Positions 87 to 56,684 of a stretch of 64,000 bases of DNA are shown piece by piece (within the stretch, counting starts at the first letter, position 1; the number at the start of each line of letters is the position of its first letter). The notes beneath the pieces were generated by a model. The model did no database searches. It was not told the DNA's origin and worked only from the letters and a program-made list of their open reading frames with translations. The position numbers were made by a program, and so were the translations under genes. This stretch comes from Candidatus Marinacidobacterium sp. (GTDB lineage: Bacteria > Acidobacteriota > Vicinamibacteria > Marinacidobacterales > Marinacidobacteraceae): assembly GCA_965262645.1 (NCBI GenBank), contig CBDHFO010000017.1:1252134-1316133 (forward strand), in the 5' to 3' direction.

Positions 87-105
87 GACGCCCCCTTCGC
101 TTGCC

Positions 106-284
106 TTAGCAGTCCGTGGACCAGGAAGCCCGAGCACCGAAAGCGGTGAGGCACCCGGCTGACAAGGCGCGATTCGGGAGGAATACCGAGTGTATTCCGA
201 CTGAAGCGGAACGCAGAGCGAAGCGGTTCAGCCGGGATGGATCGCCGCTCGAATGCCGGGCTACTTGGTTCACGGGCTGCTCAG
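106..284 (+). repeat. F1 hairpin repeat, copy 1 (diverged), forward orientation
   Basis: TTAGCAGTCCGTGGACCAGGAAGCCCG...GGCTGACAAGGCGCG...GGGAGGAATACCGAGTGTATTCC...CAGCCGGGATGGATCGCC...CGGGCTACTTGGTTCACGGGCTGCTCAG. Collinear with the copy at 934..1117. The arms pair over about 23 positions with three G-T wobbles on the + strand. Confidence 0.85.
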
Positions 285-844
285 GTCAGGGAAAGGAACG
301 AGGCGGAATCGGTCCACTGGCCCGCTTCGAACTTGAAAAGGCGCGACTTGTCGATGAGCAGTTGGCCGTCCTCCGCGAGGCTCACGCCGACGCGTTCCAG
401 CGGGCGGGGCGCCGGGCCCTCGAAGTTGATCCCCGTCGCGTAGAACCCGCTCCCGTGACAGGGACACTTGAACTTGCTCTCGGCCTCGAGCCAGTTCGGC
501 GTACATCCCAAGTGGGTGCAGATGGTGGAGAGGGCGTAGATCTTTTCCTCGTCCCGGACGATCCACACCTGGTAGCGCTCCTTGAAACGGGTATCCACCA
601 CCCCGATCGAGAAGTCAGCCGGAAAGCCCGCCTTGAACTCCGAAGGCGGCTCCGTCAGGACGTTCGGGAACATGAACCGGCCCACGGCGGTGAGCCCGGC
701 GGCCATGGCAGCCGTGAAAACAGCCCAGCCGATGGCCAGAAAAGGAAATTCCCGGCGGGTGACCTTTTTGGCGGCGGCGGAGGCTCGTTTGGGGGCCGGC
801 GCACGGGCGGACCGGGTTGCTGGACTCGCCGGAGGGTCAGGCAT
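281..844 (-). CDS. Rieske [2Fe-2S] protein of a cytochrome bc-type complex
   Basis: CTHLGCTPNW...KCPCHGSGF are the two Rieske cluster-binding boxes. There is an N-terminal hydrophobic anchor. The TGA stop at 283..281 lies in the last bases of F1 copy 1. Confidence 0.85.
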   Translation of the reverse strand: MPDPPASPATRSARAPAPKRASAAAKKVTRREFPFLAIGWAVFTAAMAAGLTAVGRFMFPNVLTEPPSEFKAGFPADFSIGVVDTRFKERYQVWIVRDEEKIYALSTICTHLGCTPNWLEAESKFKCPCHGSGFYATGINFEGPAPRPLERVGVSLAEDGQLLIDKSRLFKFEAGQWTDSASFLSLT

Positions 845-933: not shown

Positions 934-1117
934 AACAGCCTGTGGTGGAACCCGGGTGAGCGCCGAGAGCGGCGAGGCGCCCGGCTGACAAGGCGCGTGA
1001 GGGAGGAATACCTGGTGTATTTCGACCGAAACGAAACGCAGAGCGCCGCGAAGCGACGCGGTGAACAGCCGGGATGCATCGCCGCTCGAACGCCTGGGTT
1101 TCGCCACAGGCTGTTAG
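934..1117 (+). repeat. F1 hairpin repeat, copy 2 (reference copy without core-box insertions), forward orientation
   Basis: AACAGCCTGTGG...CCACAGGCTGTT termini. Hand folding gives a 25-bp outer stem (four G-T wobbles), a 9-bp stem (GAGCGGCGA/TCGCCGCTC), an 8-bp stem (CCCGGCTG/CAGCCGGG) and a roughly 75-nt apical domain containing GAGGGAGGA. Confidence 0.9.
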
Positions 1118-2007: not shown

Positions 2008-2193
2008 TTAGCAGCCGGTAGTGGAACCCGGGTGAGCGCCGAGGCTGGCCAGTCTCCCGGTGGGGGCGAGGCGCCCGGCTGACAATGCGCGTGAAGGAGG
2101 AGCCCCCACCCGGAGAACCGGCCCGAGTGTATGTCGACCGAAACGCAACGCAGAACACCAGTTCTCCCGGTGGGGGGGCGCAGCGGAGTGGTG
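2008..2193 (+). repeat. F1 hairpin repeat, copy 3 (right arm truncated, fused head-to-tail to copy 4)
   Basis: TTAGCAGCCGGTAGTGGAACCCGGGTGAGCGCCGAG...GACCGAAACGCAACGCAGAAC...GGTGAACAGCC runs directly into the left terminus of the next copy. Contains three core-box variants. Confidence 0.85.
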
Positions 2194-2431
2194 AACAGCC
2201 TGTGGTGGAACCCGCGTGAGCGCCGAGGCTGGCCAGTCTCCCGGTGGGGGCGAGGCGCTTGGCTGACAAGGCGCGTGAGGGAGGAGCCCCCACCGGGAGA
2301 ACTGGCCCGGGTGTATTCCGACCGAAACGCAACGATGAGCGGCGCGCAGCGACGCGGTCAGCCGGGATGGATCGCCGGCCGAGCCCCCACCGGGAGAACT
2401 GGGCCGCGTGAGTTTCACCACAGGCTGCTAA
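2194..2431 (+). repeat. F1 hairpin repeat, copy 4, forward orientation, with core-box insertions in both arms and the apical loop
   Basis: AACAGCCTGTGGTGGAACCCGCGTGAGCGCCGAG...GAGGGAGGAGCCCCCACCGGGAGAACTGGCCCGG...GAGTTTCACCACAGGCTGCTAA. Confidence 0.9.
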
Positions 2432-5469: not shown

Positions 5470-6089
5470 GCGGCGAATTCTGGCTGCAACCGGCTGAACA
5501 AAAGCCGCAACCGATCGGGGTCCTTGACGCCGGGAGCCGACTCGATGCCGCTTGAAATATCCACACCCCATGGCTGAAAGGGAAGCAGGCGCCCGATGTT
5601 CTCGGGTTTCAATCCTCCCGCGATGAAAGCCCGTGCCGGAGCCTGTTCCCCGAGAATGCGCCAGTCGAAGGCGCGGCCGCTACCGCCGCCACCCACGTCG
5701 AAAACGAGCGGGCCGTCCCCGTCGCCGGGAGGGACGAAGTCCGGAAGACGGTCTGCGGTCTCCGGAACGGTCACGACCCGATGGACGATCAGGCCGGCCT
5801 GCCCAAGCGACCGGACTCCGGCGTCCGACAGCCCGTGCGGCTGAACCCTTTCTATCCCCAGCGCGAATGCGTCGGCGGCGACTTCGTCCCGAGTACGCCT
5901 TCCGGTCGCGAGCACCGGACGAACCTCCGGATGAACCTCCCGAGCAGCCGCGATCACCCTGCGGGCTTCCTCGAGCGTTGCCGAACGCGGGGAATCCGGA
6001 GCCCGCACGACCCCGATCCAGCGGGCCCCAAGCCGTACGGCCAACCGGGCATCCTCCGGTCTCCGAAGGCCGCAGATCTTGACTTCCAA
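5466..6089 (-). CDS. trpF: phosphoribosylanthranilate isomerase
   Basis: [14 protein letters not shown]... N-terminus is typical of TrpF. About 207 aa, sitting between trpC and trpB. Confidence 0.85.
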
Positions 6090-8344: not shown

Positions 8345-8594
8345 TTAGCAGGCTGTGGCGAAACTCGGGTGCGATCCATTCGCGGCGCCGAGCGCCGCGG
8401 GGGAGGGGTGTGGGGAGGGGTTTCCCCTCCCCACGAAAGACGATGGCGCGGGCCCCCACCGGGAGAACTGGCGCGGAGCGATTCGCGCCATCACCCCGTG
8501 GGGAAAGCGCCCCGCACGCGCACAAATCGTCGGAATTGCCGCACGTACCGTTCCGGAAATCGTGCGGGGTGCTTTTTCCACGGGCTGTCGGTAG
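8345..8594 (+). repeat. F2 repeat, copy 1 (reference orientation), carries one core box at 8453..8471
   Basis: TTAGCAGGCTGTGGCGAAAC...GGGGAGGGGTTTCCCCTCCCC...CCCCGTGGGGAAAGCGCCCCGCACGCG...GTGCGGGGTGCTTTTTCCACGGGCTGTCGGTA. Collinear in reverse with 54121..54338 and 55207..55425. Confidence 0.8.
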
Positions 8595-10213: not shown

Positions 10214-10600
10214 ATGCCTATATACGAATATCGCTGCAACGACTGCGACGTAGTCTTCGAAGCCCTCCAGCGTCTCAGCGATGAACCGCTGGATGTCTGC
10301 CGGCACTGTGGTGGATCGGCCAGGAAGATCATTTCCAGCCCCGCCATCCATTTCGTAGGTAGTGGCTGGTACGTGACCGACTACGCCCGGAAAGCAGGGG
10401 AGAAAGGCGCAAACGGCAACAACGGCGCGTCCGCGAAAGGCGAGGATTCGGGTAAGACGGATTCGGAGAAGATGGATTCTGGCAAGACGGATTCGGGGAA
10501 CAGGGCCGGCAAGGAGAAGGCGGGGCAGAAGGCCGGCGCCGCAAGCGGCGCCAAGCCCTCCTCTTCCGGGAGCGAGTCGCGGGCCGGCTCGCCGTCGTAG
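10214..10600 (+). CDS. FmdB-family zinc-ribbon protein with low-complexity tail
   Basis: MPIYEYRCNDC...CRHCGG (CxxC...CxxC zinc ribbon typical of the FmdB/CxxC_CxxC_SSSS family). The tail has GKTDSEKMDSGKTDSG repeats. Confidence 0.8.
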   Translation: MPIYEYRCNDCDVVFEALQRLSDEPLDVCRHCGGSARKIISSPAIHFVGSGWYVTDYARKAGEKGANGNNGASAKGEDSGKTDSEKMDSGKTDSGNRAGKEKAGQKAGAASGAKPSSSGSESRAGSPS

Positions 10601-10613
10601 CAGCCTGGGTACC

Positions 10614-11555
10614 GTGCCCGGCAGGGCCATCACCTGGTCGGCAGTCGCATCCTTGTGGCTGGTCGCTGCTCCGGTGGCCGCCGCGCCGGCGCAGGCCGGA
10701 CGGGCGGCCGCGCGCGAGTGCGAAACCGCGATGCAGGCGTCCGCCTGGGACGGCGCAGTAACCCATTGCGAGGCCGCGATTCGGGCACTTCCGGACACGT
10801 ACGGCATTCACTACTTCCTCGGCCTTGCCTATCAGGCGAAACAGGCATGGAATGAGGCGGCGACCGCATTCGAATCCTTCGTTGCGGCGGCCGAAGCGGA
10901 GCCGGAGGGGGAAGCTCGGCTGGCCGAGCAGATCAGCACCGCCGTCCGCGGAGCCGCAATCGCGCGGTTTCGCGCCGCCGACCGTGAACTGGCAATGCCC
11001 CTGCTCCGGCGGGCCGCCGAAGCCGACCCGGGGGACGCCGAAGTGGCCTTTCTTCTCGGTGTCGGACTCCTGGAAGAGGGTGACCGCACAGGTGCGGAGG
11101 CCGCTTTTTCGGTCGTGGCGCGGGAAGCACCCCAGATCAGCCAGGCCCTCTTCTTTCTGGGACAACTCCGCTACGACTCCGGAGACTACGAAACGGCGCG
11201 GGCCCACCTCGCCGGGTATCTGGCGGCCGCTCCTGACGGGCCATTCCGCGCCGACGCCCACTGGATGGCGGGTTCCATGGCGCTCCGGAGTTCAGAGTCC
11301 GAGGCGGCGGATGCCGGCGCCACGGAGGACGAAGCCCTACTTCACTTCGCCGCATTTCTCGAAATCGAACCGGAGAGCGCCCGGGCCGCGGTTGCCCACT
11401 ACTTCATCGGCACGATCGCCGCCGATCGCGAAGAGTGCGATCAAGCCCGTCGCCACTATCAGGACTTCCTCAGAATCGCGCCGGAGCACGAGCGCGCCTC
11501 GGAGGTGCAGCGCTATCTGGAGGAGGATTTGGCACTCTGCAGCGCGCCCGGATAA
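10614..11555 (+). CDS. secreted TPR-repeat protein, paralogue 1 of 3
   Basis: Signal-like N-terminus (WSAVASLWLVAAPVAAAPAQA). TPR-like helices. Shares conserved Cys positions and block order with 11690..12745 and 12965..14062. GTG start. Confidence 0.65.
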   Translation: MPGRAITWSAVASLWLVAAPVAAAPAQAGRAAARECETAMQASAWDGAVTHCEAAIRALPDTYGIHYFLGLAYQAKQAWNEAATAFESFVAAAEAEPEGEARLAEQISTAVRGAAIARFRAADRELAMPLLRRAAEADPGDAEVAFLLGVGLLEEGDRTGAEAAFSVVAREAPQISQALFFLGQLRYDSGDYETARAHLAGYLAAAPDGPFRADAHWMAGSMALRSSESEAADAGATEDEALLHFAAFLEIEPESARAAVAHYFIGTIAADREECDQARRHYQDFLRIAPEHERASEVQRYLEEDLALCSAPG

Positions 11556-14062: not shown

Positions 14063-14087
14063 AGCTCCCGCGGGGTCAGATCCGCTC

Positions 14088-14292
14088 TTAACAGCCGGTG
14101 GCAAAACCCACGCGGCGTTCGGCGCGGGCTGCATCCCGGCTGAACCACTCCGCTTCGCTGCGTTCTGCGTTGCGTTTCGGTCGGAATACACCCGGGCCAG
14201 TTCTCCCGGTGGGGGCTCCTCCCTCACGCGCCTTGTCAGCCGGGCGCTTCCCGCACCTCGGCGCTCACGGGGGTTTCACCACCGGCTGTTAA
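14088..14292 (-). repeat. F1 hairpin repeat, copy 5, reverse orientation
   Basis: TTAACAGCCGGTGG...GCGTTGCGTTTCGGTCGGAATACACCCGGGCCAGTTCTCCCGGTGGGGGCTCCTCCCTCACGCGCCTTGTCAGCCGGG...CCACCGGCTGTTAA. Perfect 14-bp terminal inverted repeat. Inner arm mismatches are G-T only in the forward sense. Confidence 0.9.
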
Positions 14293-14747
14293 CCCGCCCC
14301 CACCGGCTCGCGCAGGTAGCGCGGCAGCAGCGGTGGATCCATGAACGCGATCCGTTGCCGTTCCACAAGCCAGATCCGGGCGAGGAGAAGGTTCAGGTAG
14401 CGCAGCTCTTCCAGCGAGTACCGAACCTCGCCCTGCTCGTAGCGTCGCAGCCAGTGGCCCGGCAGCTCCCTCGCGATCTCGTACCAGAGACCATCCACGG
14501 CGGCGGTCGCCGTCCGCGCCGTCTCAACCGTGTGCGCCACCAGGTAGAGCACCGAGTCCGGTTCCAGGAGACGGCTGCTGGCTGCCACCGAGCGTATCCC
14601 GCGGAGGAGATAGACCAGGCACCACCGCACCTCCGGGGTCAGTGACTGCGGGTCCGCGAGCATTCGCGGTGCGAGAAACGCTGCCGCTCCCTGTTCGTCG
14701 TCGAAGAGCAACCGGTAAAGCTCGGTGCGGAGGGCGTCTCTCGGCAT
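14289..14747 (-). CDS. hypothetical protein (152 aa)
   Basis: Good G/C third-position bias. Starts 16 nt after the stop of the FG-GAP/ASPIC gene. No motif I recognise. Its TAA stop is the TTAA terminus of F1 copy 5. Confidence 0.5.
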   Translation of the reverse strand: MPRDALRTELYRLLFDDEQGAAAFLAPRMLADPQSLTPEVRWCLVYLLRGIRSVAASSRLLEPDSVLYLVAHTVETARTATAAVDGLWYEIARELPGHWLRRYEQGEVRYSLEELRYLNLLLARIWLVERQRIAFMDPPLLPRYLREPVGAG

Positions 14748-24676: not shown

Positions 24677-24863
24677 CGCGCCATCGTACCCGCGTATCCG
24701 TCGAGCGCTCCCCGGACGGAACCACCGGTGGCGTCGAGTTAGCGCCTGTCGTCTTCGGTTGAGTGGCCTGGGCTGCGTGGCGATACACCACTCGCCTCCA
24801 GGGAGGTAGGCGATGAGCCGGCTCGCGTTGCCGGCCAACCTCCGGAGATGGCGGCCGGGAGCG

Positions 24864-25104
24864 CTAACAGCCTGTGGTGGAACCCGGGTGAGCGCCGAGA
24901 GCGGTGAGGCCCAGTTCTCCCGGTGGGGGTCCGGCTGACAAGGCGCGTGAGGGAGGAATACCGGGTGTATTTCGACCGAAACGCAACGCAGAACGCCAGT
25001 TCTCCCGGTGGGGGGGCGAAGCGGAGTGGTTCAGCCGGGATGCATCGCCGCTCGAGCCCCCACCGGGAGAACTGGGCCGCCTGGGTTTCACCACAGGCTG
25101 TTAA
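24864..25104 (+). repeat. F1 hairpin repeat, copy 6, forward orientation, three core boxes
   Basis: CTAACAGCCTGTGGTGGAACCCGGGTGAGCGCCGAGAGCGG...GAGGGAGGAATACCGGGTGTATTTCGACCGAAACGCAACGCAGAAC...GGGTTTCACCACAGGCTGTTAA. Confidence 0.9.
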
Positions 25105-26135
25105 CCCACGGAAACGCGGAGGCGCGGATCCTGGCGGAGCCGGAGAAGCGCTTCGGTCTCGAGCTGCCGCACCCGTTCCCGGGTCAGGTGAAGCTCACGC
25201 CCGATCTCCTCGAGGTTCGCCTCACCGCCACCCAGAATCCCGAAGCGTCGCTTGAGCACATGCTGCAACCGATCGGGGAGGTCCGAAATGGCATCCCGGA
25301 CGTGGCGGCGCTGTTCGGCATCGGTGACACCTTCGATCGGATTCAACTGATCCGGATCGGGAGTCAGCGCGATCCGCGGCGTCCCATCAGGAACCAACGG
25401 CGCATCAAGGGAGTCAATCTGCGGCACCGAACGGAGCGCATCCTTGAGCCTGTCCGCGGGCACTCCTATCTCGCGAGCGATGTCGTCGGCCGTCGGGAAT
25501 TGCCGCTTCCCGCGTCGCGCAGGATCGTTCCGGTACCGCTGCTCGAGTTCCGCCCGAACCTTGGAAGCCTTGCGGTGAAGATCCAGCTTGTTGATAGGAA
25601 CCTTGATCGTGCGTGACTTTTGGGAAAGTGCACGCCAGATCGCCTGCCGAATCCACCACGTCGCATAGGTCGAGAACTTCAGATTGCGCTCCGGCTCGAA
25701 CTTGCGAACCGCCTGCATGAGTCCGATGTTGCCTTCCTGGATGAGATCGCCCAGCGGGAGCCCCTTGCCTCGGGACTGCTTGGCAATGGAGATGACGAGG
25801 CGCAGGTTCCCCTCGATCATCTTTTCCCGGTTCTTGTAGAAGGCACTAAGGTCCTGGTTCGCCGGATCCTCGGTGCCCTCAATGCCGCGAAGGGCTTGCT
25901 GCATGGCGCGGCTGTAGCGCTGCTCGTCATTCTTGGTGAGCAGCCGGTGCCGGTGCGTATCCCGCAGATAGAGCCCCATCGAGTCCAGATCGCCGGTCTG
26001 GTGGGTATCTGGAGCGAGGCCGAGTTCTCGAGCCTCATCCAACTCATCCTCAGTGGACTCTTCCTCTTCCTCCTCGAGATCGAAAGCCTCGTCGACGAAC
26101 TCAATGGTTTCGTAGTCTGTAGTCGTAGGGTCCAT
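25101..26135 (-). CDS. RNA polymerase sigma-70 family factor (group 1/2-like)
   Basis: Acidic N-terminus, then [37 protein letters not shown] (region 2) and [18 protein letters not shown] (region 4.2). GGAGGG lies 5 nt before the ATG at 26135. The TAA stop is the TTAA terminus of F1 copy 6. Confidence 0.85.
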
Positions 26136-27117: not shown

Positions 27118-27193
27118 TTACAGCCTGTGGTGGAACCCGCGTGAGCGCCGAGGCTGGCCAGTTCTCCCGGTGGGGGCGAGGCGCCCGGCTGAA
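27118..27193 (+). repeat. F1 repeat, copy 7 (left arm only)
   Basis: TTACAGCCTGTGGTGGAACCCGCGTGAGCGCCGAGGCTGGCCAGTTCTCCCGGTGGGGGCGAGGCGCCCGGCTGA, then homology stops. Confidence 0.8.
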
Positions 27194-27201
27194 ATCGCCC
27201 G

Positions 27202-30018
27202 CTAGAAAGCGTGGCCGATCGTGAAATGCCACTGCCCGCGCGGGGCATCACCGATGTCGCCGAGGCGGATTCCGTAATCGAAACGCAGCGGCCCGAGCGG
27301 AGTGTTCCATCGCAAGCCAGCGCCTACGTTGTGGCCGAGGTCTCCCACCCGAAAGGAGTTCACTTCGCTGTAGACCCCGCCATGATCCGAGAAAACCGCG
27401 CCGCGCAGACTGCTCAGGATGGGGAATCGAACCTCCAGATTGCCGACGATCAGCAGGTTGCCACCGACCGGGTAACCGCTCGGGTCGAGCGGTCCCGCGC
27501 GGTCCAGTTTGTAACCACGCAAGGAGGTCGCTCCACCGGCGAAGAATCGCTCGGTGATCGGTACGAGAGCCGGCTCGTCCGCGCCCAGAGTCCACGCAAG
27601 ACCGAGTCGGCCCGCAACCGCAACGACTACCTGTCCCCCGACCGGGAAAAACAGATATTGCTGTGCGAGGCCCTTCAGGAAGGGCGCTCGGGAGCGGAGA
27701 AGTGCGGACGACCACTCCACATCCAGGATGCCGAAACGGCCCCGACGAGGATCCACCGGGTCATCGCGGGTGTCCGTGACCACGGAAGCCGACACCGCCG
27801 AGAGCCAGAGATTGTCCGCAAAGTTGCGGTCAATCTGATTCGGATTGATCTTCAGATCGAACAGCTCGCTCGTGGTCAGGTCATAGCGGAGAAAAAAACT
27901 TCGCCCGAGGACTCTCCGGGTAACCTGCACGCCGATTCCAGAGCGGATGAAATCCAGGCTCTCCCGGTCCTGCGACTCACGGAACGCGCTCACGAAGATA
28001 GGGACCTCGCCCTCCACGCTCTCCGCCCCCCGGTAGGTCGCCACCATCCGCGTGCCCTTGAGCGAAAACCGGCCGAACAGACTCAAGGTATGGCCCATCC
28101 CGAAGAGATTGTTCCGGGTCCATTCGCCATCTCCCCGGACCTGCTCGCGTTCGCTGTACCCCGCGCCGTAGCCGATGCTGGTGCGCGGGCCCTCCACAAC
28201 CCGGATCAGCACGTTGCGCTCGCTGATCGGTTCCTCGGGCTCGAGGAGATTCACGTCGACGCTGCGAAAGATCCCCATGGAAACGAGGCGCCGGCGCACC
28301 TCGAGGAGATCGCCGCTCCCCAGCGGATCGCCCTCCTCAAAAGGAAGCCGGGACCGGATCACTGAATCCCTCGTGGTATCGAGGCCCGCGACGATGATCC
28401 CTCCGACCGTGAAGTAGTTGCCGGGTCGGATCCGGAAGACGACCTCCGCATCGTGGCTGATCGGATCGACCGGAGCCTCGACCTCCACCACGGCTTCCAG
28501 ATATCCCCGGTTTCGATGAAACGTCTCGAGATCTTCGCGGGCGCCCACGATTTCTTCGGCTACGTAGGGTGTACCCGGCGCAATGGCGGCCACCTCCGAC
28601 AGGTCGGTATCGGTGAATGCGGAACCCCCTTCGAAACGCACCGCCCGCACCGAGGCCGCCGGACCCGGATCAACCCGCACATTGAGATCAAGCGAGAGGC
28701 CTTCGTCGGCCGGGACGGGCGGGCCCGGCTCCAGCGGCACCACCTCAACCCGGAAATAACCCCGCCGCCGCAGCGTTCGGCGCAGGCTGTCGGTCAGGGC
28801 CCTCCACTCTTCTTCGCGGTAGGGACGGCCGGGCCGCAGCGGCAGAAGGGCTTCGGCGACGCTATCCGCCTCCTCCGGAGGGGCGCCTTCCGATGAGACC
28901 GCGCCGACAACGTAACGCGGGCCCGGGTCGGCGGAGAACCGGAAGGTCTGCCGGAGCCCATCCGGACTCTCGACGCTCTCCACCACCACGGTACCGTCCC
29001 GATGTCCTTCCCGACGAAGCTCGGCAAGGAGTTGCTGCCTGGTCGCTTCGATCGCATCCAAAGTGAGCGTGCGCTCCGAAAGGGAATCCACGACGCGCTC
29101 GGCAGCCCCCCCGGAAGCACCGAACCCTTCCACTTCCAGGGTAACCTCGGGGCCGGGCTCCACCGACAGAACCACCCGAACATCTCCCGTGTCGATGGGC
29201 CTCCAATCGAGACTGGCAGTGGCGAAGAGGAAGCCTCGATCCCGAAGTCTTTCCTCGACTTCGGGAAGGCGCGCAGCAACTTCGGCTTCGAGCCAGGGAT
29301 CCTCTGGAGAAACCCGGAGCGCGGGGATGACGTTCCGGCCGAGCTCGTCTTCCACCCCGACGGCCTCGATGAAGGCGACCCGGGCGCGCGCTCCCGAGGT
29401 CACCCGCACCTCCAGGCGCGCATCGCGGCCGTCCGGCACGCTCCGGATGTCCACTTCCGCGGTCAGGTAACCCCGCGAGCGCAACCACCCTTCGGCTGTC
29501 GCTCCTCGAACGGGCAGGTCGTCCGGAACGGATTCGCCGACCTCGAGACCGAGCGTGGCGATCAGCCCCAAATCCTCTCCGGGAGGGGCACCGTCAACGC
29601 TAAACCGGGCGATACTTGGAATGGGGTCGAGTTCAAAGACGAGCCGAAGTCCCCCACCCGACGCCGCCTCGGAACGAATCCGGACGTCGCGGAAGCGTCC
29701 GAGAGCAAACACCTGCTTCACAGATTGCCGGGCGACCAGTGGCCGGAAGCGAGTTCCGGGACGAACCGAGATCAGCCGGGACACCTCTTCGGGTACCGGG
29801 TCGTTGCTCCCATCCGCCCAGCGCACCACCACCGACTCCACGCGCTGTGACAACGGATCTTCCGCCTGACCGGCGCCGGTCTGGCCAGCGGCAAGGCGCC
29901 CGCTCGGGATCGCCGACAAGCCAGCGGCGAGGAGGATCGCTCCCGGACGGCCTAGGCTGCGCCAGGAATCCTTAACGGCCTGTGGACAAAGTCGCACGGC
30001 ATTCAAGCGGCGATGCAT
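27202..30018 (-). CDS. bamA: outer membrane protein assembly factor BamA
   Basis: POTRA-like repeats, then a beta-barrel ending ...GLRWNTPLGPLRFDYGIRLG...WHFTIGHAF (C-terminal aromatic). The N-terminal 96 codons of the ORF run through F1 copy 8. The first usable in-frame start (ATG at 30018) lies inside the repeat, so the start is uncertain. Confidence 0.8.
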   Translation of the reverse strand: MHRRLNAVRLCPQAVKDSWRSLGRPGAILLAAGLSAIPSGRLAAGQTGAGQAEDPLSQRVESVVVRWADGSNDPVPEEVSRLISVRPGTRFRPLVARQSVKQVFALGRFRDVRIRSEAASGGGLRLVFELDPIPSIARFSVDGAPPGEDLGLIATLGLEVGESVPDDLPVRGATAEGWLRSRGYLTAEVDIRSVPDGRDARLEVRVTSGARARVAFIEAVGVEDELGRNVIPALRVSPEDPWLEAEVAARLPEVEERLRDRGFLFATASLDWRPIDTGDVRVVLSVEPGPEVTLEVEGFGASGGAAERVVDSLSERTLTLDAIEATRQQLLAELRREGHRDGTVVVESVESPDGLRQTFRFSADPGPRYVVGAVSSEGAPPEEADSVAEALLPLRPGRPYREEEWRALTDSLRRTLRRRGYFRVEVVPLEPGPPVPADEGLSLDLNVRVDPGPAASVRAVRFEGGSAFTDTDLSEVAAIAPGTPYVAEEIVGAREDLETFHRNRGYLEAVVEVEAPVDPISHDAEVVFRIRPGNYFTVGGIIVAGLDTTRDSVIRSRLPFEEGDPLGSGDLLEVRRRLVSMGIFRSVDVNLLEPEEPISERNVLIRVVEGPRTSIGYGAGYSEREQVRGDGEWTRNNLFGMGHTLSLFGRFSLKGTRMVATYRGAESVEGEVPIFVSAFRESQDRESLDFIRSGIGVQVTRRVLGRSFFLRYDLTTSELFDLKINPNQIDRNFADNLWLSAVSASVVTDTRDDPVDPRRGRFGILDVEWSSALLRSRAPFLKGLAQQYLFFPVGGQVVVAVAGRLGLAWTLGADEPALVPITERFFAGGATSLRGYKLDRAGPLDPSGYPVGGNLLIVGNLEVRFPILSSLRGAVFSDHGGVYSEVNSFRVGDLGHNVGAGLRWNTPLGPLRFDYGIRLGDIGDAPRGQWHFTIGHAF

Positions 30019-30209
30019 CCCGGCTGAAGCGCCCCCCCACCGGGAGAACTGGCGCTTCGCGTCGTTCGTCGTTGCGCTTCGGTCGAAATACACCCGGGCC
30101 AGTTCTCCCGGTGGGGGCTCCTCCCTCACGCGCCTTGTCAGCCGGACCCCCACCGGGACTGGGCCTCCCCGCTCTCGGCGCTCCCCCGGGTTCCACCACA
30201 GGCCGTTAA
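29972..30209 (-). repeat. F1 hairpin repeat, copy 8, reverse orientation (arms from two different subfamilies)
   Basis: TTAACGGCCTGTGGACAAAGTCGCACGG...GGTCGAAATACACCCGGGCCAGTTCTCCCGGTGGGGGCTCCTCCCTCACGCGCCTTGTCAGCCGG...GGGTTCCACCACAGGCCGTTAA. Confidence 0.9.
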
Positions 30210-30326
30210 GCCGGGCGGCCCGCTCGCAGAATCGCGGGGCCCAGGTCCTCTCGCGGGGGCTCACCCAGCGACCCGCAGTTCTTCCGGTCGGGGCCTCGTC
30301 ACTCACGCGAATTGATCCACGAGACC

Positions 30327-36376: not shown

Positions 36377-36457
36377 CAGTCCGTGGACAGTGTTCTGGCG
36401 GCCCGGTCCTCCCGCGGGAGGCTTGGCGCTCACACCACTCTACCCACAGGCTGTTAG
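36377..36457 (-). repeat. F1 repeat, short internally deleted copy, reverse orientation
   Basis: CAGTCCGTGGACAGTGTTCTGGCGGCCCGGTCCTCCCGCGGG...GGCGCTCACACCACTCTACCCACAGGCTGTTAG. Resembles the deleted copy at 51153..51276. Confidence 0.6.
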
Positions 36458-40888: not shown

Positions 40889-40984
40889 CACACGCGCCTT
40901 GTCAGCCGGGCCCCCACCGGGAGAACTGGCCCCACCGGGAGAACTGGCCGGGCTCGGCGCTCACCCGGGTTCCACCACAGGCTG

Positions 40985-40988
<4 letters not shown>
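40889..40988 (-). repeat. F1 repeat, copy 9 (partial; one arm plus two tandem core boxes), reverse orientation
   Basis: CACGCGCCTTGTCAGCCGGGCCCCCACCGGGAGAACTGGCCCCACCGGGAGAACTGGCCGGGCTCGGCGCTCACCCGGGTTCCACCACAGGCTGTTAG. Confidence 0.85.
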
Positions 40989-46022: not shown

Positions 46023-47024
46023 ATGTCAACCAGTCAATGGTACGTAGCGGAAGGAGGCCGGACGCTTGGTCCGTTCTCCAGCGCCGATGTCCTGCAGGCT
46101 CTCCAGAGCGGACGCTGGACCGCGGCGACCATGGTTTGCCCTCTCGGGGAAACCTCCTGGAAACCCGCCTCCAGCATCCCCGAACTGCGGGTCGGCATCG
46201 GCGCCGGCTCAGCCCCGCCCCGTCCTCGGGCGCCGCGGCGGATGCACGAAGTGGACTACCGGATCGTCGGCGAGGAAATGCAGTTCGTGGAAGTCGAGCT
46301 CGATCCCAGCGAAGGGGCGATCGCCGAAGCGGGCGCCATGATGTTCATGAGCTCCGGAATCGAGATGCAGACCATCTTCGGCACCGGTGGAGAGAGCGGC
46401 TTCATGGACAAGGTGCTCGGCGCCGGAAAGCGGCTGCTGACCGGCGAGAGCCTCTTCATGACCGAGTTCGTGAACCGCGGCGCCGGAAAGCAGCACGTGG
46501 CCTTCGCTTCACCCTACCCAGGCAAGATCCTGCCGGTGCGACTCGACGAACTCGGGGGCCGGCTTATCGCGCAGAAGGATGCCTTCCTGTGCGGCGCCAA
46601 AGGGGTGTCGATCGGGATCGCCTTTCAGCGGAAGATCGGTACGGCGCTCTTCGGAGGCGAGGGTTTCATCATGCAGTCGCTCGAGGGCGACGGCCTGGCC
46701 TTCCTGCACGCCGGCGGCACGATCATCAAGAAGGAACTGGCGGCCGGCGAGAACCTGCGGGTAGACACCGGGTGTCTGGTCGCGCTCGCCCCTTCGGTGA
46801 ACTACGACATTCAGTCCGTGGGCGGGATCAAGTCCGCCCTCTTCGGCGGAGAGGGATTCTTCTTCGCCAGCCTCACGGGACCGGGGTGGGTCTGGCTGCA
46901 GTCCCTGCCCTTCAGCCGATTGGCCGGCCGGATCCATCAGGCCGCGCCGCAGACAGGCCGCGGTGGCAAGGGAGAGGGTTCGCTCCTCGGCCGGCTCTCC
47001 GGGGTCGGTTGGGACGGCTCTTAG
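46023..47024 (+). CDS. GYF_2 (DUF4339) domain fused to AIM24/TIGR00266-family protein
   Basis: WYVAEGGRTLGPFSSADVLQALQSGRWTAATMVCPLGETSWKPASSIPEL is GYF_2-like. Then Y.I.G...Q.VEV.L.P.E...AE.GAMM.M...I.M.T and GEGFIMQSLEGDG.AFLHAGG are AIM24-like. AGGAGA precedes the ATG. The TAG stop is the TTAG terminus of F1 copy 10. Confidence 0.65.
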   Translation: MSTSQWYVAEGGRTLGPFSSADVLQALQSGRWTAATMVCPLGETSWKPASSIPELRVGIGAGSAPPRPRAPRRMHEVDYRIVGEEMQFVEVELDPSEGAIAEAGAMMFMSSGIEMQTIFGTGGESGFMDKVLGAGKRLLTGESLFMTEFVNRGAGKQHVAFASPYPGKILPVRLDELGGRLIAQKDAFLCGAKGVSIGIAFQRKIGTALFGGEGFIMQSLEGDGLAFLHAGGTIIKKELAAGENLRVDTGCLVALAPSVNYDIQSVGGIKSALFGGEGFFFASLTGPGWVWLQSLPFSRLAGRIHQAAPQTGRGGKGEGSLLGRLSGVGWDGS

Positions 47025-47207
47025 CAGCCTATGGAAAAAGTCACGCGGCATTCGAACGGCGATGCATCCCGGCTGAACCGGGCCGCTTCGCGACCCTCAT
47101 CGTTGCGTTTCGGTCGGAATACACTCGGTATTCCTCCCTCACGCGCCTTGTCAGCCGGGCGCCTCGCCGTTCTCGGTGCTCACGTCACTTTCTCCACAGG
47201 CTGCTAG
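47021..47207 (-). repeat. F1 hairpin repeat, copy 10, reverse orientation, arm-variant subfamily without core boxes
   Basis: TTAGCAGCCTATGGAAAAAGTCACGCGG...GCGTTTCGGTCGGAATACACTCGGTATTCCTCCCTCACGCGCCTTGTCAGCCGGG...CACGTCACTTTCTCCACAGGCTGCTAG. A solo terminus-like fragment follows (CAGCCTGCGGACAA, 47208..47221). Confidence 0.9.
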
Positions 47208-47226
47208 CAGCCTGCGGACAACTGAC

Positions 47227-51152: not shown

Positions 51153-51276
51153 CCAGCAGCCTGTGGACACAGTCGCGCGGCCCGGTTCTCCCGGTGGGGG
51201 CTCCTCCCTCGCGCGCCTTGTCGGCCGGGCGACTCGCCGGGCTCGGCGCTCACCCGGGTCCACCACCGGCTGCTAG
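51153..51276 (-). repeat. F1 repeat, copy 11, reverse orientation, internally deleted
   Basis: CCAGCAGCCTGTGGACACAGTCGCGCGG|CCCGGTTCTCCCGGTGGGGGCTCCTCCCTCGCGCGCCTTGTCGGCCGGG...CACCCGGGTCCACCACCGGCTGCTAG. Confidence 0.8.
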
Positions 51277-51612: not shown

Positions 51613-51654
51613 TCTCCCGGAGAACACCCCGGGGGACAAGAAAGCGCTTCGGTG

Positions 51655-51832
51655 AACAGCCGGTGGTGGAACCCGGGTGAGCGCCGAGGCCGGCCAGTTC
51701 TCCCGGTGGGGGCAAGGCCCAGTTCTCCCGGTGGGGCCAGTTCTCCCGGTGGGGGCCCGGCTGACAAGGCGCGTGAGGGAGGAGCCCCCACCGGGAGAAC
51801 TGGGCCGCGTGGGTTTCACCACCGGCTGTTAA
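51655..51832 (+). repeat. F1 repeat, copy 12, forward orientation, apical domain deleted, three tandem core boxes at 51694..51755
   Basis: AACAGCCGGTGGTGGAACCCGGGTGAGCGCCGAGG, then the box three times, then GGCTGACAAGGCGCGTGAGGGAGGAGCCCCCACCGGGAGAACTGGGCCGCGTGGGTTTCACCACCGGCTGTTAA. Confidence 0.85.
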
Positions 51833-51851
51833 AGCCGGTAGCGGGCTACCG

Positions 51852-52663: not shown

Positions 52664-52737
52664 GGCGGGGTAGCTCAGCCGGTCAGAGCGAAGGACTCAT
52701 AACCCTTAGGTCGGCGGTTCAAGTCCGCCCCCCGCTA
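52664..52737 (+). tRNA. tRNA with CAT anticodon (Met; could be the lysidine-modified Ile2 type)
   Basis: GGCGGGG-TA-GCTC-AGCCGGTC-AGAGC-G-AAGGA-CTCATAA-CCCTT-AGGTC-GGCGG-TTCAAGT-CCGCC-CCCCGCT-A. Cloverleaf with anticodon loop CTCATAA. There is a G1-T72 wobble and one A-C at the loop end of the anticodon stem. No encoded CCA. Confidence 0.8.
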
Positions 52738-53989: not shown

Positions 53990-54077
53990 TGGTGCCGGAG
54001 GAGGGACTCGAACCCTCATGGCCCCAGGGACCGCGGGATTTTGAGTCCCGTGCGTCTACCAATTCCGCCACTCCGGC
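53990..54077 (-). tRNA. tRNA-Leu (anticodon CAA), CCA encoded
   Basis: Reverse complement reads GCCGGAG-TG-GCGG-AATTGGTAG-ACGC-A-CGGGA-CTCAAAA-TCCCG-(long variable arm CGGTCCCTGGGGCCATG)-AGGGT... TTCGAGT ...CTCCGGC-A-CCA. Class II tRNA cloverleaf. Confidence 0.92.
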
Positions 54078-54120: not shown

Positions 54121-54338
54121 CTACCCACGGCCCGTGGGGAAAGCACCCCGGATCGCGTCCATGACCGGAAACGCGCCAAGTCTCAGATCTTTGGTTGCGG
54201 GTGCTTTCCCCCACACAATGGCGGCGCAAATCGTTCCGCGATGCACCCCACCGTCTTGGGGAAATCCCTCCCCACACGTCGCCTGCGGCGCTGCACGCCG
54301 CAATTTGACGCTGCGCGACTTGCGCCACCGGCTGTTGA
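54121..54338 (-). repeat. F2 repeat, copy 2, reverse orientation
   Basis: CTACCCACGGCCCGTGGGGAAAGCACCCCGGATCGCG...GCGGGTGCTTTCCCCCACA...GGGGAAATCCCTCCCCACAC...TTGCGCCACCGGCTGTTGA. Collinear with the reverse complement of 8345..8594. Confidence 0.75.
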
Positions 54339-55209: not shown

Positions 55210-55425
55210 CGCCCGGGGGGAAGCACCCCGCTCGCGATCACGACGGGAAACACCCCACGTCTGCGGAATCGGTCGGATGCGGGGCGTTTCCCTCTCTGGA
55301 TGGCGGAGCGCATCGCTTCGCGATCCGCTCCACCGTCTTTCGTTTCGAGGGGATACCCCTCCCGAGCGGCGCTCGGCGCCGCGGGCTCGGCCTGGCGCCA
55401 GGCGACTTCCTCCGCACGCTGCTAG
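55207..55425 (-). repeat. F2 repeat, copy 3, reverse orientation
   Basis: TAGCGCCCGGGGGGAAGCACCCCGCTCGCGATC...GCGGGGCGTTTCCCTCTCTGGATGGCGGAGCGCATCGCTTCGCGATCC...GAGGGGATACCCCTCCC...CCGCACGCTGCTAG. Confidence 0.7.
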
Positions 55426-56264: not shown

Positions 56265-56331
56265 TCGGTCAGAGCCAAAACGGCGGCCGAATGGAGCACC
56301 ACCCGGCGCACGCCGGCGTTCGAATTCGGCA

Positions 56332-56554
56332 CCAGCAGCCGGTGGCGAAACCCGCGCGGCCCAGTTCTCCCGGTGGGGGCTCGGCCGGCGATCCATCCCG
56401 GCTGAACCGCGTCGCTGCGCGCCGCTCATCGTTGCGTTTCAGTCGAAATACACCCGGGCCAGTTCTCCCGGTGGGGGCTCCTCCCTCACGCGCCTCGTCA
56501 GCCGGGCGCCTCGCCGGCCTCGGCGCTCACGTGGGTTCCGCCACCGGCTGTTAA
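56332..56554 (-). repeat. F1 hairpin repeat, copy 13, reverse orientation
   Basis: CCAGCAGCCGGTGGCGAAACCCGCGCGGCCCAGTTCTCCCGGTGGGGGC...GCGTTTCAGTCGAAATACACCCGGGCCAGTTCTCCCGGTGGGGGCTCCTCCCTCACGCGCCTCGTCAGCCGGG...GGGTTCCGCCACCGGCTGTTAA. Confidence 0.9.
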
Positions 56555-56684
56555 CCGCGTCGCTGCGCGCCGCTCATCGTTGCATTTCGGTCGAAATACA
56601 CCCGGTATTCCTCCCTCACGCGCCTTGTCAGCCCGGCGCCTCACCGGCCTCGGCGCTCACGTGGGTTCCGCCACCAACTACTAG
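56555..56684 (-). repeat. F1 repeat, copy 14 (partial, fused head-to-tail to copy 13), reverse orientation
   Basis: Restarts at CCGCGTCGCTGCGCGCCGCTCATCGTTGCATTTCGGTCGAAATACACCCGGTATTCCTCCCTCACGCGCCTTGTCAGCC...GGGTTCCGCCACCAACTACTAG. Confidence 0.85.

Follow-up and report, generated by a model that had tools for sequence, protein, structure and literature searches.

A foldback repeat of Marinacidobacterium genomes whose multiplication depends on the fold of one strand

The F1 repeat and its copies in the window

The window, a stretch of 64,000 nt from Candidatus Marinacidobacterium sp. (assembly GCA_965262645.1, contig CBDHFO010000017.1, positions 1,252,134 to 1,316,133; 66% G+C), contains about 15 full and partial copies of a non-coding foldback repeat, designated F1, which together account for ~4% of its bases (Table 1). 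F1 is ~185 nt long, with a length range of 182-250 nt, has no ORF and is bounded by a terminal inverted repeat (CAGCCKGTGG...CCACMGGCTG) that is kept in nearly all copies. As a rule, copies were intergenic and abutted the starts and stops of housekeeping genes. A second element, F2, was found to carry the F1 terminal repeat around a different interior consisting of short hairpins in a row, several with C(GNA)G caps. It has the same polarity as F1; among its 12 relatives the forward strand was the more stable in 11, and mismatches numbered 20 of the G-U type vs. 7 of the A-C type. Two tRNA genes, each adjoining element ends or F2 remnants, were the only features in the window to reach an Rfam gathering score. 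No family for F1 was found in Rfam 15, where the best E-value on the element was 0.28, to an unrelated family. Resemblances to hammerhead, k-turn and omega-RNA were considered and rejected as lacking support.

At least 102 places in public genomes contain a 25-nt stretch of the F1 core; every one of these genomes is a MAG assigned to Vicinamibacteria or 'Candidatus Marinacidobacterium' (Acidobacteriota), and sponges are the source of many. An HMM built from three copies gave 236 nhmmer matches in the window and 102 further loci; 136 of the copies were distinct and full-length, and 64 of these had the plain 182-186-nt form. Hundreds of F1 copies lie outside the window, in at least 13 genomes. 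A covariance model (CM) matched 233 times in 0.85 Mb of sequence from 13 genomes, in both orientations and with indels that varied, which is the short, non-coding and dispersed habit of a MITE; the terminal inverted repeat likewise agrees with that class. Some CM matches that seemed to be separate, 'core-only' elements proved to be F1 copies interrupted by box insertions (see below). A search of a plasmid collection gave no match, and no F1 element was present in the viral contigs searched; an 18-mer match in one viral contig (L103) belonged to an unrelated coding sequence.

Table 1. Copies, parts and neighbors of F1 and F2 in the window (fold energies in kcal/mol, forward vs. reverse strand)
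Feature	Position	Strand	Evidence or remark
F1 copy 1, canonical with divergent arms	102..287	+	CM 161.7 bits; fold -114.9 vs. -91.8
F1 copy 2	934..1117	+	CM match 928-1121, 188 bits; fold -115.9 vs. -98.1, z -9.3
Copy 2, outer helix	934-958 with 1093-1117	+	pair list
Copy 2, termini	CAGCC 936-940; GGCTG 1109-1113	+	
Copy 2, conserved apical three-way-junction domain	about 983-1083	+	
F1 copy 3, left arm and core; head-to-tail fusion with copy 4 at internal CAGCC	2008..2156	+	nhmmer 58 bits, model positions 1-113
F1 copy 4, mirrored pair of 19-nt box insertions	2194..2430	+	nhmmer 116.6 bits; fold
Copy 4, mirrored boxes	2218-2240 with 2384-2402		
F2 element	8345..8592	+	12 relatives by nhmmer
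F1 copy 5, box in P7 apex	14084..14296	-	CM 174.6 bits
F1 copy 6, mirrored boxes	24860..25108	+	CM 117.5 bits; fold -159.0 vs. -137.2
Copy 6, mirrored boxes	24911-24929 with 25057-25075		
F1 copy 7, left-arm fragment	27119..27205	+	nhmmer 23.5 bits
F1 copy 8, mixed arm types	29968..30213	-	CM 82.8 bits
Short hairpin derivative of F1, outer arms only, apex deleted	36377..36457	-	fold and pair list
F1 copy 9, half copy	40889..40987	-	nhmmer 27.5 bits
F1 copy 10, best canonical copy of the window	47017..47211	-	CM 224.5 bits; fold -120.9 vs. -99.9
F1 copy 11, partial	51202..51275	-	nhmmer 35.8 bits
F1 copy 12, box-rich, most of the core missing	51649..51836	+	CM 39.7 bits; fold
Copy 12, mirrored boxes	51694-51755 with 51785-51803		
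tRNA gene	52664-52737	+	reaches Rfam gathering score
tRNA gene	53993-54077	-	reaches Rfam gathering score
Further F2 places	54125-54336; 55219-55383		
F1 copy 13	56328..56558	-	CM 124.5 bits; site empty in syntenic locus L087
F1 copy 14, left arm and core, fused to copy 13	56545..56683	-	nhmmer 111 bits

Syntenic loci differed by the presence or absence of F1 (the window against L087 and L068; L069 against L045). In the cleanest pair, L069 and L045, the empty site consisted of one TAA and the filled site of TAA and TAG flanking the element; when the window was compared with L087, X-CTAG-element-CTGG-Y stood against X-CTAG-Y. These junctions resemble TA, TAR or YTAR duplications and fit an insertion without duplication equally well, an ambiguity due to the palindromic nature of the extended ends TTAACAGCC...GGCTGTTAA. 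At a further site (window 10590-10615) the 'empty' allele is that of the window, which retains TAGCAGCC (~10597-10612); the site reads GTAGCAGCCTGGG, 8 nt of it identical to the left end of F1, and the filled allele in L068 (7380-7610) has two tandem TARCAGC motifs. The remnant may be the footprint left by an excision, or else the target may imitate the element end.

A 19-nt box (CCAGTTCTCCCGGTGGGGG) was nested in F1 copies in either orientation, often as mirrored pairs in which one arm pairs with the other, which suggests arm-to-arm copying or nested growth instead of two independent insertions. Mini-hairpins of 55-80 nt made up of the F1 outer arms only were found in the window and at L101 (5091-5157) and L089 (~6004-6066); their deletion end-points lay at paired positions, as expected from a polymerase skipping the apex of a DNA hairpin. 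Head-to-tail arrays of left arm plus core occurred at window positions 2150-2200 and 56545-56560 and at L001 (5330-6130), joined at an internal CAGCCGG that mimics the left terminus, via the junction GGTGAACAGCC. The end of the L001 array resembles a resumed host copy, suggesting that F1 is here nested in F1.

Fold, covariation and one-strand wobbles

The F1 forward strand was found to fold into a single long rod that begins with an outer helix of ~25 bp, continues through a conserved, asymmetric, purine-rich internal loop (CCGA opposite GAA) and two more helices, and ends in a three-way junction. This apex is nearly invariant across genomes, its unpaired bases included, while the arms vary, so that the interior is conserved more than the subterminal arms. 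One arm of the junction contains a 5-nt loop and two G-A-rich internal loops (tandem G-A loops). The other, a short hairpin that covaries, has a C(GNA)G cap in 104 of ~128 simple copies, N being A, C, T or G; d(GCGNAGC) is a classic hyperstable DNA mini-hairpin. The sequence CTGA was noted at the foot of the inner junction (GGCTGACAAGG). Overall, the forward strand is purine-rich (10929 G vs. 8334 C; 5670 A vs. 3993 T).

An RNAalifold analysis of a MAFFT alignment (A1) of 63 plain or canonical copies from 13 genomes gave 61 pairs, 27 of which had changed on both sides with pairing kept. In the alignment 98.2% of the stem cells were paired, as against 32-41% when the structure was slid by 1-3 columns, which also left only 6-10 double-change pairs. 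Shuffled alignments gave 16.5 +/- 1.4 double-change pairs, and none of 500 shuffles reached any of the five measures used. Clear examples were alignment pairs 15/186 (UA in 43 copies, GC in 10), 9/192 (GC 35, AU 25), 25/176 (CG 48, GC 14) and 26/175 (CG 38, UA 21). A reading of the window from its letters alone (hereafter the sequence-only reading) had proposed that different copies use different arm sequences that still pair and that the terminal stem shows double substitutions; both were evident in the 63-copy alignment, and covariation, which it had proposed to test, exceeded shuffled and slid controls alike. F1 therefore resembles a REPIN in being a hairpin-forming inverted doublet with compensatory arm changes.

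The sequence-only reading had also listed the imperfections of individual outer stems, and most of that list held. The 25-position outer helix of copy 2, reported to contain four T-G or G-T pairs, had exactly four G-U/U-G pairs and no mismatch; copy 1 had three wobbles and an A-A, and copy 5 three wobbles and a C-U, in both cases as described. In copy 10 the G-G mismatch was recovered, with three wobbles where two had been counted. The short copy, the apex-deleted hairpin at 36377-36457, described as mixed, was indeed so, with two wobbles and one C-A.

The bias toward forward-strand wobbles proved to be general. When 150 copies were aligned on a covariance model (R1), the stem cells comprised 7125 Watson-Crick, 789 G-U-type, 59 A-C-type and 252 other combinations, so that wobbles on the forward strand were 13 times commoner than those on the reverse; standard pairs accounted for 96.2% of the forward and 87.3% of the reverse reading. 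Equal frequencies on the two strands, which the sequence-only reading had named as the result that would speak against it, were thus not observed. The forward strand was the more stable in all 136 full-length copies under RNA parameters and in 134 of 136 under DNA parameters, by a mean of 17.5 and 8.1 kcal/mol, respectively. In a strand-neutral count, each of the 136 copies was folded with G-U pairs forbidden and mismatches were tallied in symmetric 1x1 and 2x2 loops. This yielded 414 G-U-type vs. 62 A-C-type and 522 purine-purine vs. 48 pyrimidine-pyrimidine mismatches. F1 has no hidden common A-C position, so the asymmetry was not produced by the choice of structure. Taken as a whole, the wobble census and the covariation controls support the proposal of the sequence-only reading that a folded single strand with a defined polarity is under selection, and not just inverted repeats bound by protein.

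Selection at propagation and orientation on the chromosome

Distinct variants, each defined by a pair and its state, were binned by the number of copies carrying them. Those found in a single copy comprised 13 of the G-U type and 15 of the A-C type, and those in two copies 10 and 11. Among variants in 3-8 copies the numbers were 15 and 6, and among variants in 9 or more copies 18 and 0. Rare variants (1-2 copies) were therefore balanced, with 23 G-U-type and 26 A-C-type, while variants that had spread (at least 3 copies) stood at 33 to 6 (Fisher p = 3e-4; spread class alone against parity, p = 1.4e-5). The independent MAFFT alignment A1 gave 16/14 for singletons and 22/3 for spread variants, and 62 new metagenome copies showed the same pattern (18/10 vs. 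32/6). In 59 unpaired columns, spread transitions numbered 8 (C>T, A>G) vs. 8 (G>A, T>C) and singletons 8 vs. 6, and non-standard pairs were about as frequent in sense as in antisense copies (4.2% vs. 3.3%, p = 0.18).

Since every variant requires at least one mutation and hitch-hiking is blind to its type, the G-U excess means that lineages with forward-strand mismatches fail to multiply. An asymmetry that is absent from private variants and strong in spread ones places the selection at the propagation step and not on resident copies, which show no sign of purifying selection, given that private changes are symmetric and that sense and antisense copies pair equally well. The symmetric loop transitions argue against strand-biased deamination as the cause. 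These results show that lineages keeping forward-strand pairing, either by G-T/G-U wobbles or by compensated pairs, make more copies and that A-C lineages do not, whereas inserted copies decay neutrally on both strands. Because wobbles are kept on one strand, and only in variants that have multiplied, F1 copying depends on the single-stranded fold of that strand, i.e., on the purine-rich forward strand folding on itself.

The orientation of F1 was not that of the neighboring genes. Between co-directional genes, 41 copies were sense and 76 antisense (35% sense). In four complete chromosomes, orientation concordance was 0.59-0.62 at distances of 100-600 kb vs. 0.44 beyond 1.5 Mb (contrast p = 0.012). 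With tandem copies collapsed, orientation matched that of other blocks within 500 kb by 45 to 17, and where the region and the flanking genes were in conflict it sided with the region by 34 to 9. A KOPS-like octamer, GGGNAGGG, counted outside elements, had 62 occurrences on the element-forward strand and 108 on the other (permutation p = 4e-4), with a coding-strand preference of only 59%. Its strand skew was seen to run in step with element orientation at loci on CAXXLQ010000004.1, OZ252286.1, OZ244986.1 and OY821641.1. The GC skew of 8-kb blocks was uninformative about F1 orientation (rho -0.16), with a third-position skew opposite in sign, and seems to be dominated there by coding-strand composition. 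A two-change-point scan of orientation, which is a weak design, gave p = 0.04 for V1 and no significance for M1 and M2.

F1 orientation is tied to a chromosome-scale polarity, which is most likely the direction of replication. Judged from these proxies, the forward strand tends to be lagging-strand sequence, i.e., leading-strand template. The sequence-only reading had asked whether orientation goes with replication or with transcription. By the proxies of regional concordance and GGGNAGGG, the answer leaned to replication, and it went against transcription. An orientation that follows chromosome-scale polarity together with a bias toward antisense argues against a simple role as co-transcribed RNA.

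The folded strand, rival explanations and known systems

We propose that F1 is a non-autonomous foldback mobile element, MITE- or REPIN-like, and that to propagate it requires one strand, of fixed polarity, in a folded single-stranded state; we put the probability of this reading at roughly 0.7. The folded forward strand would serve as an intermediate or a cofactor of transposition, with the transposase acting in trans. It may be exposed as ssDNA at the replication fork, as in HUH/Y1 (RAYT or IS200-like) systems or a variant of them, or else may be an RNA produced from source copies. We slightly favor ssDNA; the points counted for it are the orientation pattern, the C(GNA)G caps, the symmetric apex deletions and the mirrored box insertions. 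The high tolerance of G-U favors RNA: such pairs make up 9.6% of F1 stem cells, which is typical of RNAs, and G-T pairs are weakly maintained in ssDNA viruses while G-U pairs are strongly kept in RNAs (PMC6993869). The presence of F1 in sponge metatranscriptome contigs, which are undirected and carry no strand information, also counts toward RNA. The summed word depth of window segments 958-1044 and 2263-2436 in the metatranscriptome was 20-70x that of the neighboring Rieske gene, a figure that is not interpretable because it sums hundreds of copies and may include DNA carry-over. A scan of F1 revealed no promoter-like site in the element.

No transposase was found in ~1.5 Mb of loci sequence, and the loci examined held no autonomous IS with F1 ends. 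A six-frame regex scan for the Y1 HUH...Y motif returned nothing convincing in the 0.87 Mb covered, which is a minor fraction of each genome, and no multi-copy protein occurred among 739 ORFs. Ten ORFs bracketed by element ends were considered as transposase candidates and rejected, all being housekeeping genes. The TA/YTAR duplication-like sites, which count against our preferred reading, point to a DDE enzyme of the IS630 or IS5 type that works by cut-and-paste. DDE cut-and-paste enzymes handle double-stranded DNA, and on such a substrate there is no obvious reason for strand polarity. A bolder version of the proposal, which we rate as doubtful, is that F1 and F2 move through folded ssDNA despite their TA-type junctions, by a class 3 Y1/HUH or an undescribed enzyme for which the three-way-junction core would be a recognition or priming module, or that the core is a structured RNA of a new kind that copying requires. 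If this were true, selection would act on the single-strand fold as a unit and not on the terminal repeats, in an element that accounts for several percent of the genomes of these symbionts.

An ordinary double-strand MITE would offer another account, in which an IS630- or IS5-type DDE transposase recognizes the terminal repeats only, the hairpin is a by-product of palindromic origin, and the asymmetry reflects effects on the host at the RNA level (terminator or stabilizer hairpins, RNase III targets) that filter which insertions survive. The duplication-like junctions are what such an enzyme would leave, F2 has the F1 terminal repeat around another interior, and both the metatranscriptome contigs and the RNA-typical share of G-U pairs agree with an effect exerted through transcripts. 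An RNA-level filter is hard to reconcile, however, with a sense orientation in just 35% of copies between co-directional genes, with equal pairing in sense and antisense copies, with an orientation that flanking genes predict worse than regional polarity does, and with an element in which no promoter-like site was seen; moreover, the strand symmetry of private mutations leaves no detectable RNA-level purifying selection on resident copies. We therefore regard this account as rather unlikely. The notion that the G-T pairs are simply made by mutation, through deamination of a single-stranded forward strand (C>T, A>G) and with no selection on folding, fares much worse. Both changes that create G-U pairs are of that type, and F1 is oriented with a bias relative to the replication proxy, but the unpaired columns were unbiased in spread variants and singletons alike and private stem variants were symmetric (23 vs. 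26), making this explanation highly improbable.

Compensatory changes might also arise unselected, if quasi-palindrome correction or fold-back template switching during replication copied changes and insertions from one arm to the other. The mutually pairing 19-nt boxes in both arms of copies 4, 6 and 12 and the mini-hairpins left by symmetric apex deletions look like products of such templated conversion, and transversion swaps (CG to GC, UA to GC), which are impossible via a wobble, account for many of the double changes. Conversion of this kind corrects every type of mismatch alike, however, and so explains neither the 33 G-U-type against 6 A-C-type spread variants nor the many G-U intermediates at exactly those pairs that alternate between AU and GC. 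It may complement one-strand selection but is no substitute for it, and as a full explanation we consider it unlikely.

Bacterial genomes often contain hairpin repeats, but seldom can one tell whether the hairpin as such is of consequence. Compensatory arm changes as such are already known from REPINs, bcr1 and ERIC; what F1 newly demonstrates is that selection during its spread acts on a single-strand fold of fixed polarity. REPINs are doublets of REP sequences that form hairpins and are moved by RAYT/TnpA-REP, acting on a single ssDNA strand, with compensatory arm changes common (PMC3116915). F1 shares with them hundreds of intergenic copies, a whole unit that is one hairpin, compensated arms, and tandem and mosaic arrays similar to BIMEs. 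It differs in being longer (185 nt), in having a conserved three-way-junction core and in its base, YTAR-CAGCC with ends CAGCC...GGCTG, where no GT[AG]G foot (CnGA in class 3) was recognized; F1 is accordingly classed as a MITE/REPIN variant. In Acidobacteria and Planctomycetes, class 3 TnpA-Y1 genes sit among 'atypical' hairpin repeats, ~600 of them in the acidobacterium Solibacter (PMC6006769), whereas for F1 no Y1 gene was found in the 0.87 Mb scanned, a small part of each genome. A further difference lies in the junctions of F1, which resemble TA duplications of a kind that HUH enzymes are not known to make; given the palindromic ends, this point is ambiguous.

The IS200/IS605 family offers a parallel for strand dependence, in that its movement requires strand-specific folding of ssDNA and its orientation is coupled to replication (PMC6006769). 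Members of this family and their non-autonomous derivatives, the PATEs, unlike F1, have two different subterminal hairpins in place of one element-long hairpin and insert 3' of a tetra- or pentanucleotide. Their active strand lies on the lagging-strand template; the polarity of F1 is opposite to that of IS608 if GGGNAGGG, a proxy, marks the leading strand, which would count against our preferred reading.

In outward form F1 comes closest to Correia/CREE of Neisseria, a TA-duplicating MITE (PMC3184786), and to RUP. These belong to the same 100-200 bp class and likewise have TIRs with TA at both ends and no ORF, are intergenic and often placed on stop codons, fold into hairpins and are present in transcripts. 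RUP of pneumococcus is thought to be moved by IS630-Spn1. Neither is known to have the strong one-strand wobble asymmetry of F1 with its evidence of selection at propagation; F1 also differs in an interior conserved more than the subterminal arms, in an orientation tied to chromosome-scale polarity and in a far higher density. The MITE-like repeats bcr1 (Bacillus cereus group) and ERIC have compensatory changes that were interpreted as RNA structure (PMC3184786). They resemble F1 as dispersed repeats of ~150 nt with a predicted cruciform or hairpin kept by such changes, and they are transcribed. In F1, by contrast, the direction of transcription predicts neither orientation nor pairing quality, and sequence, host and target site are unrelated.

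Set beside these systems, the variant spectrum of F1 separates two levels, the symmetric decay of resident copies and the one-strand pairing of variants that multiply, and so provides direct sequence evidence for a polar, single-stranded step in the life cycle of an otherwise plain-looking, TA-inserting MITE. The mechanism bears on how sponge-symbiont genomes are shaped and expressed, given the abundance of F1 beside the starts and stops of housekeeping genes. For any repeat family, scoring G-T against A-C variants by copy number is an inexpensive test.
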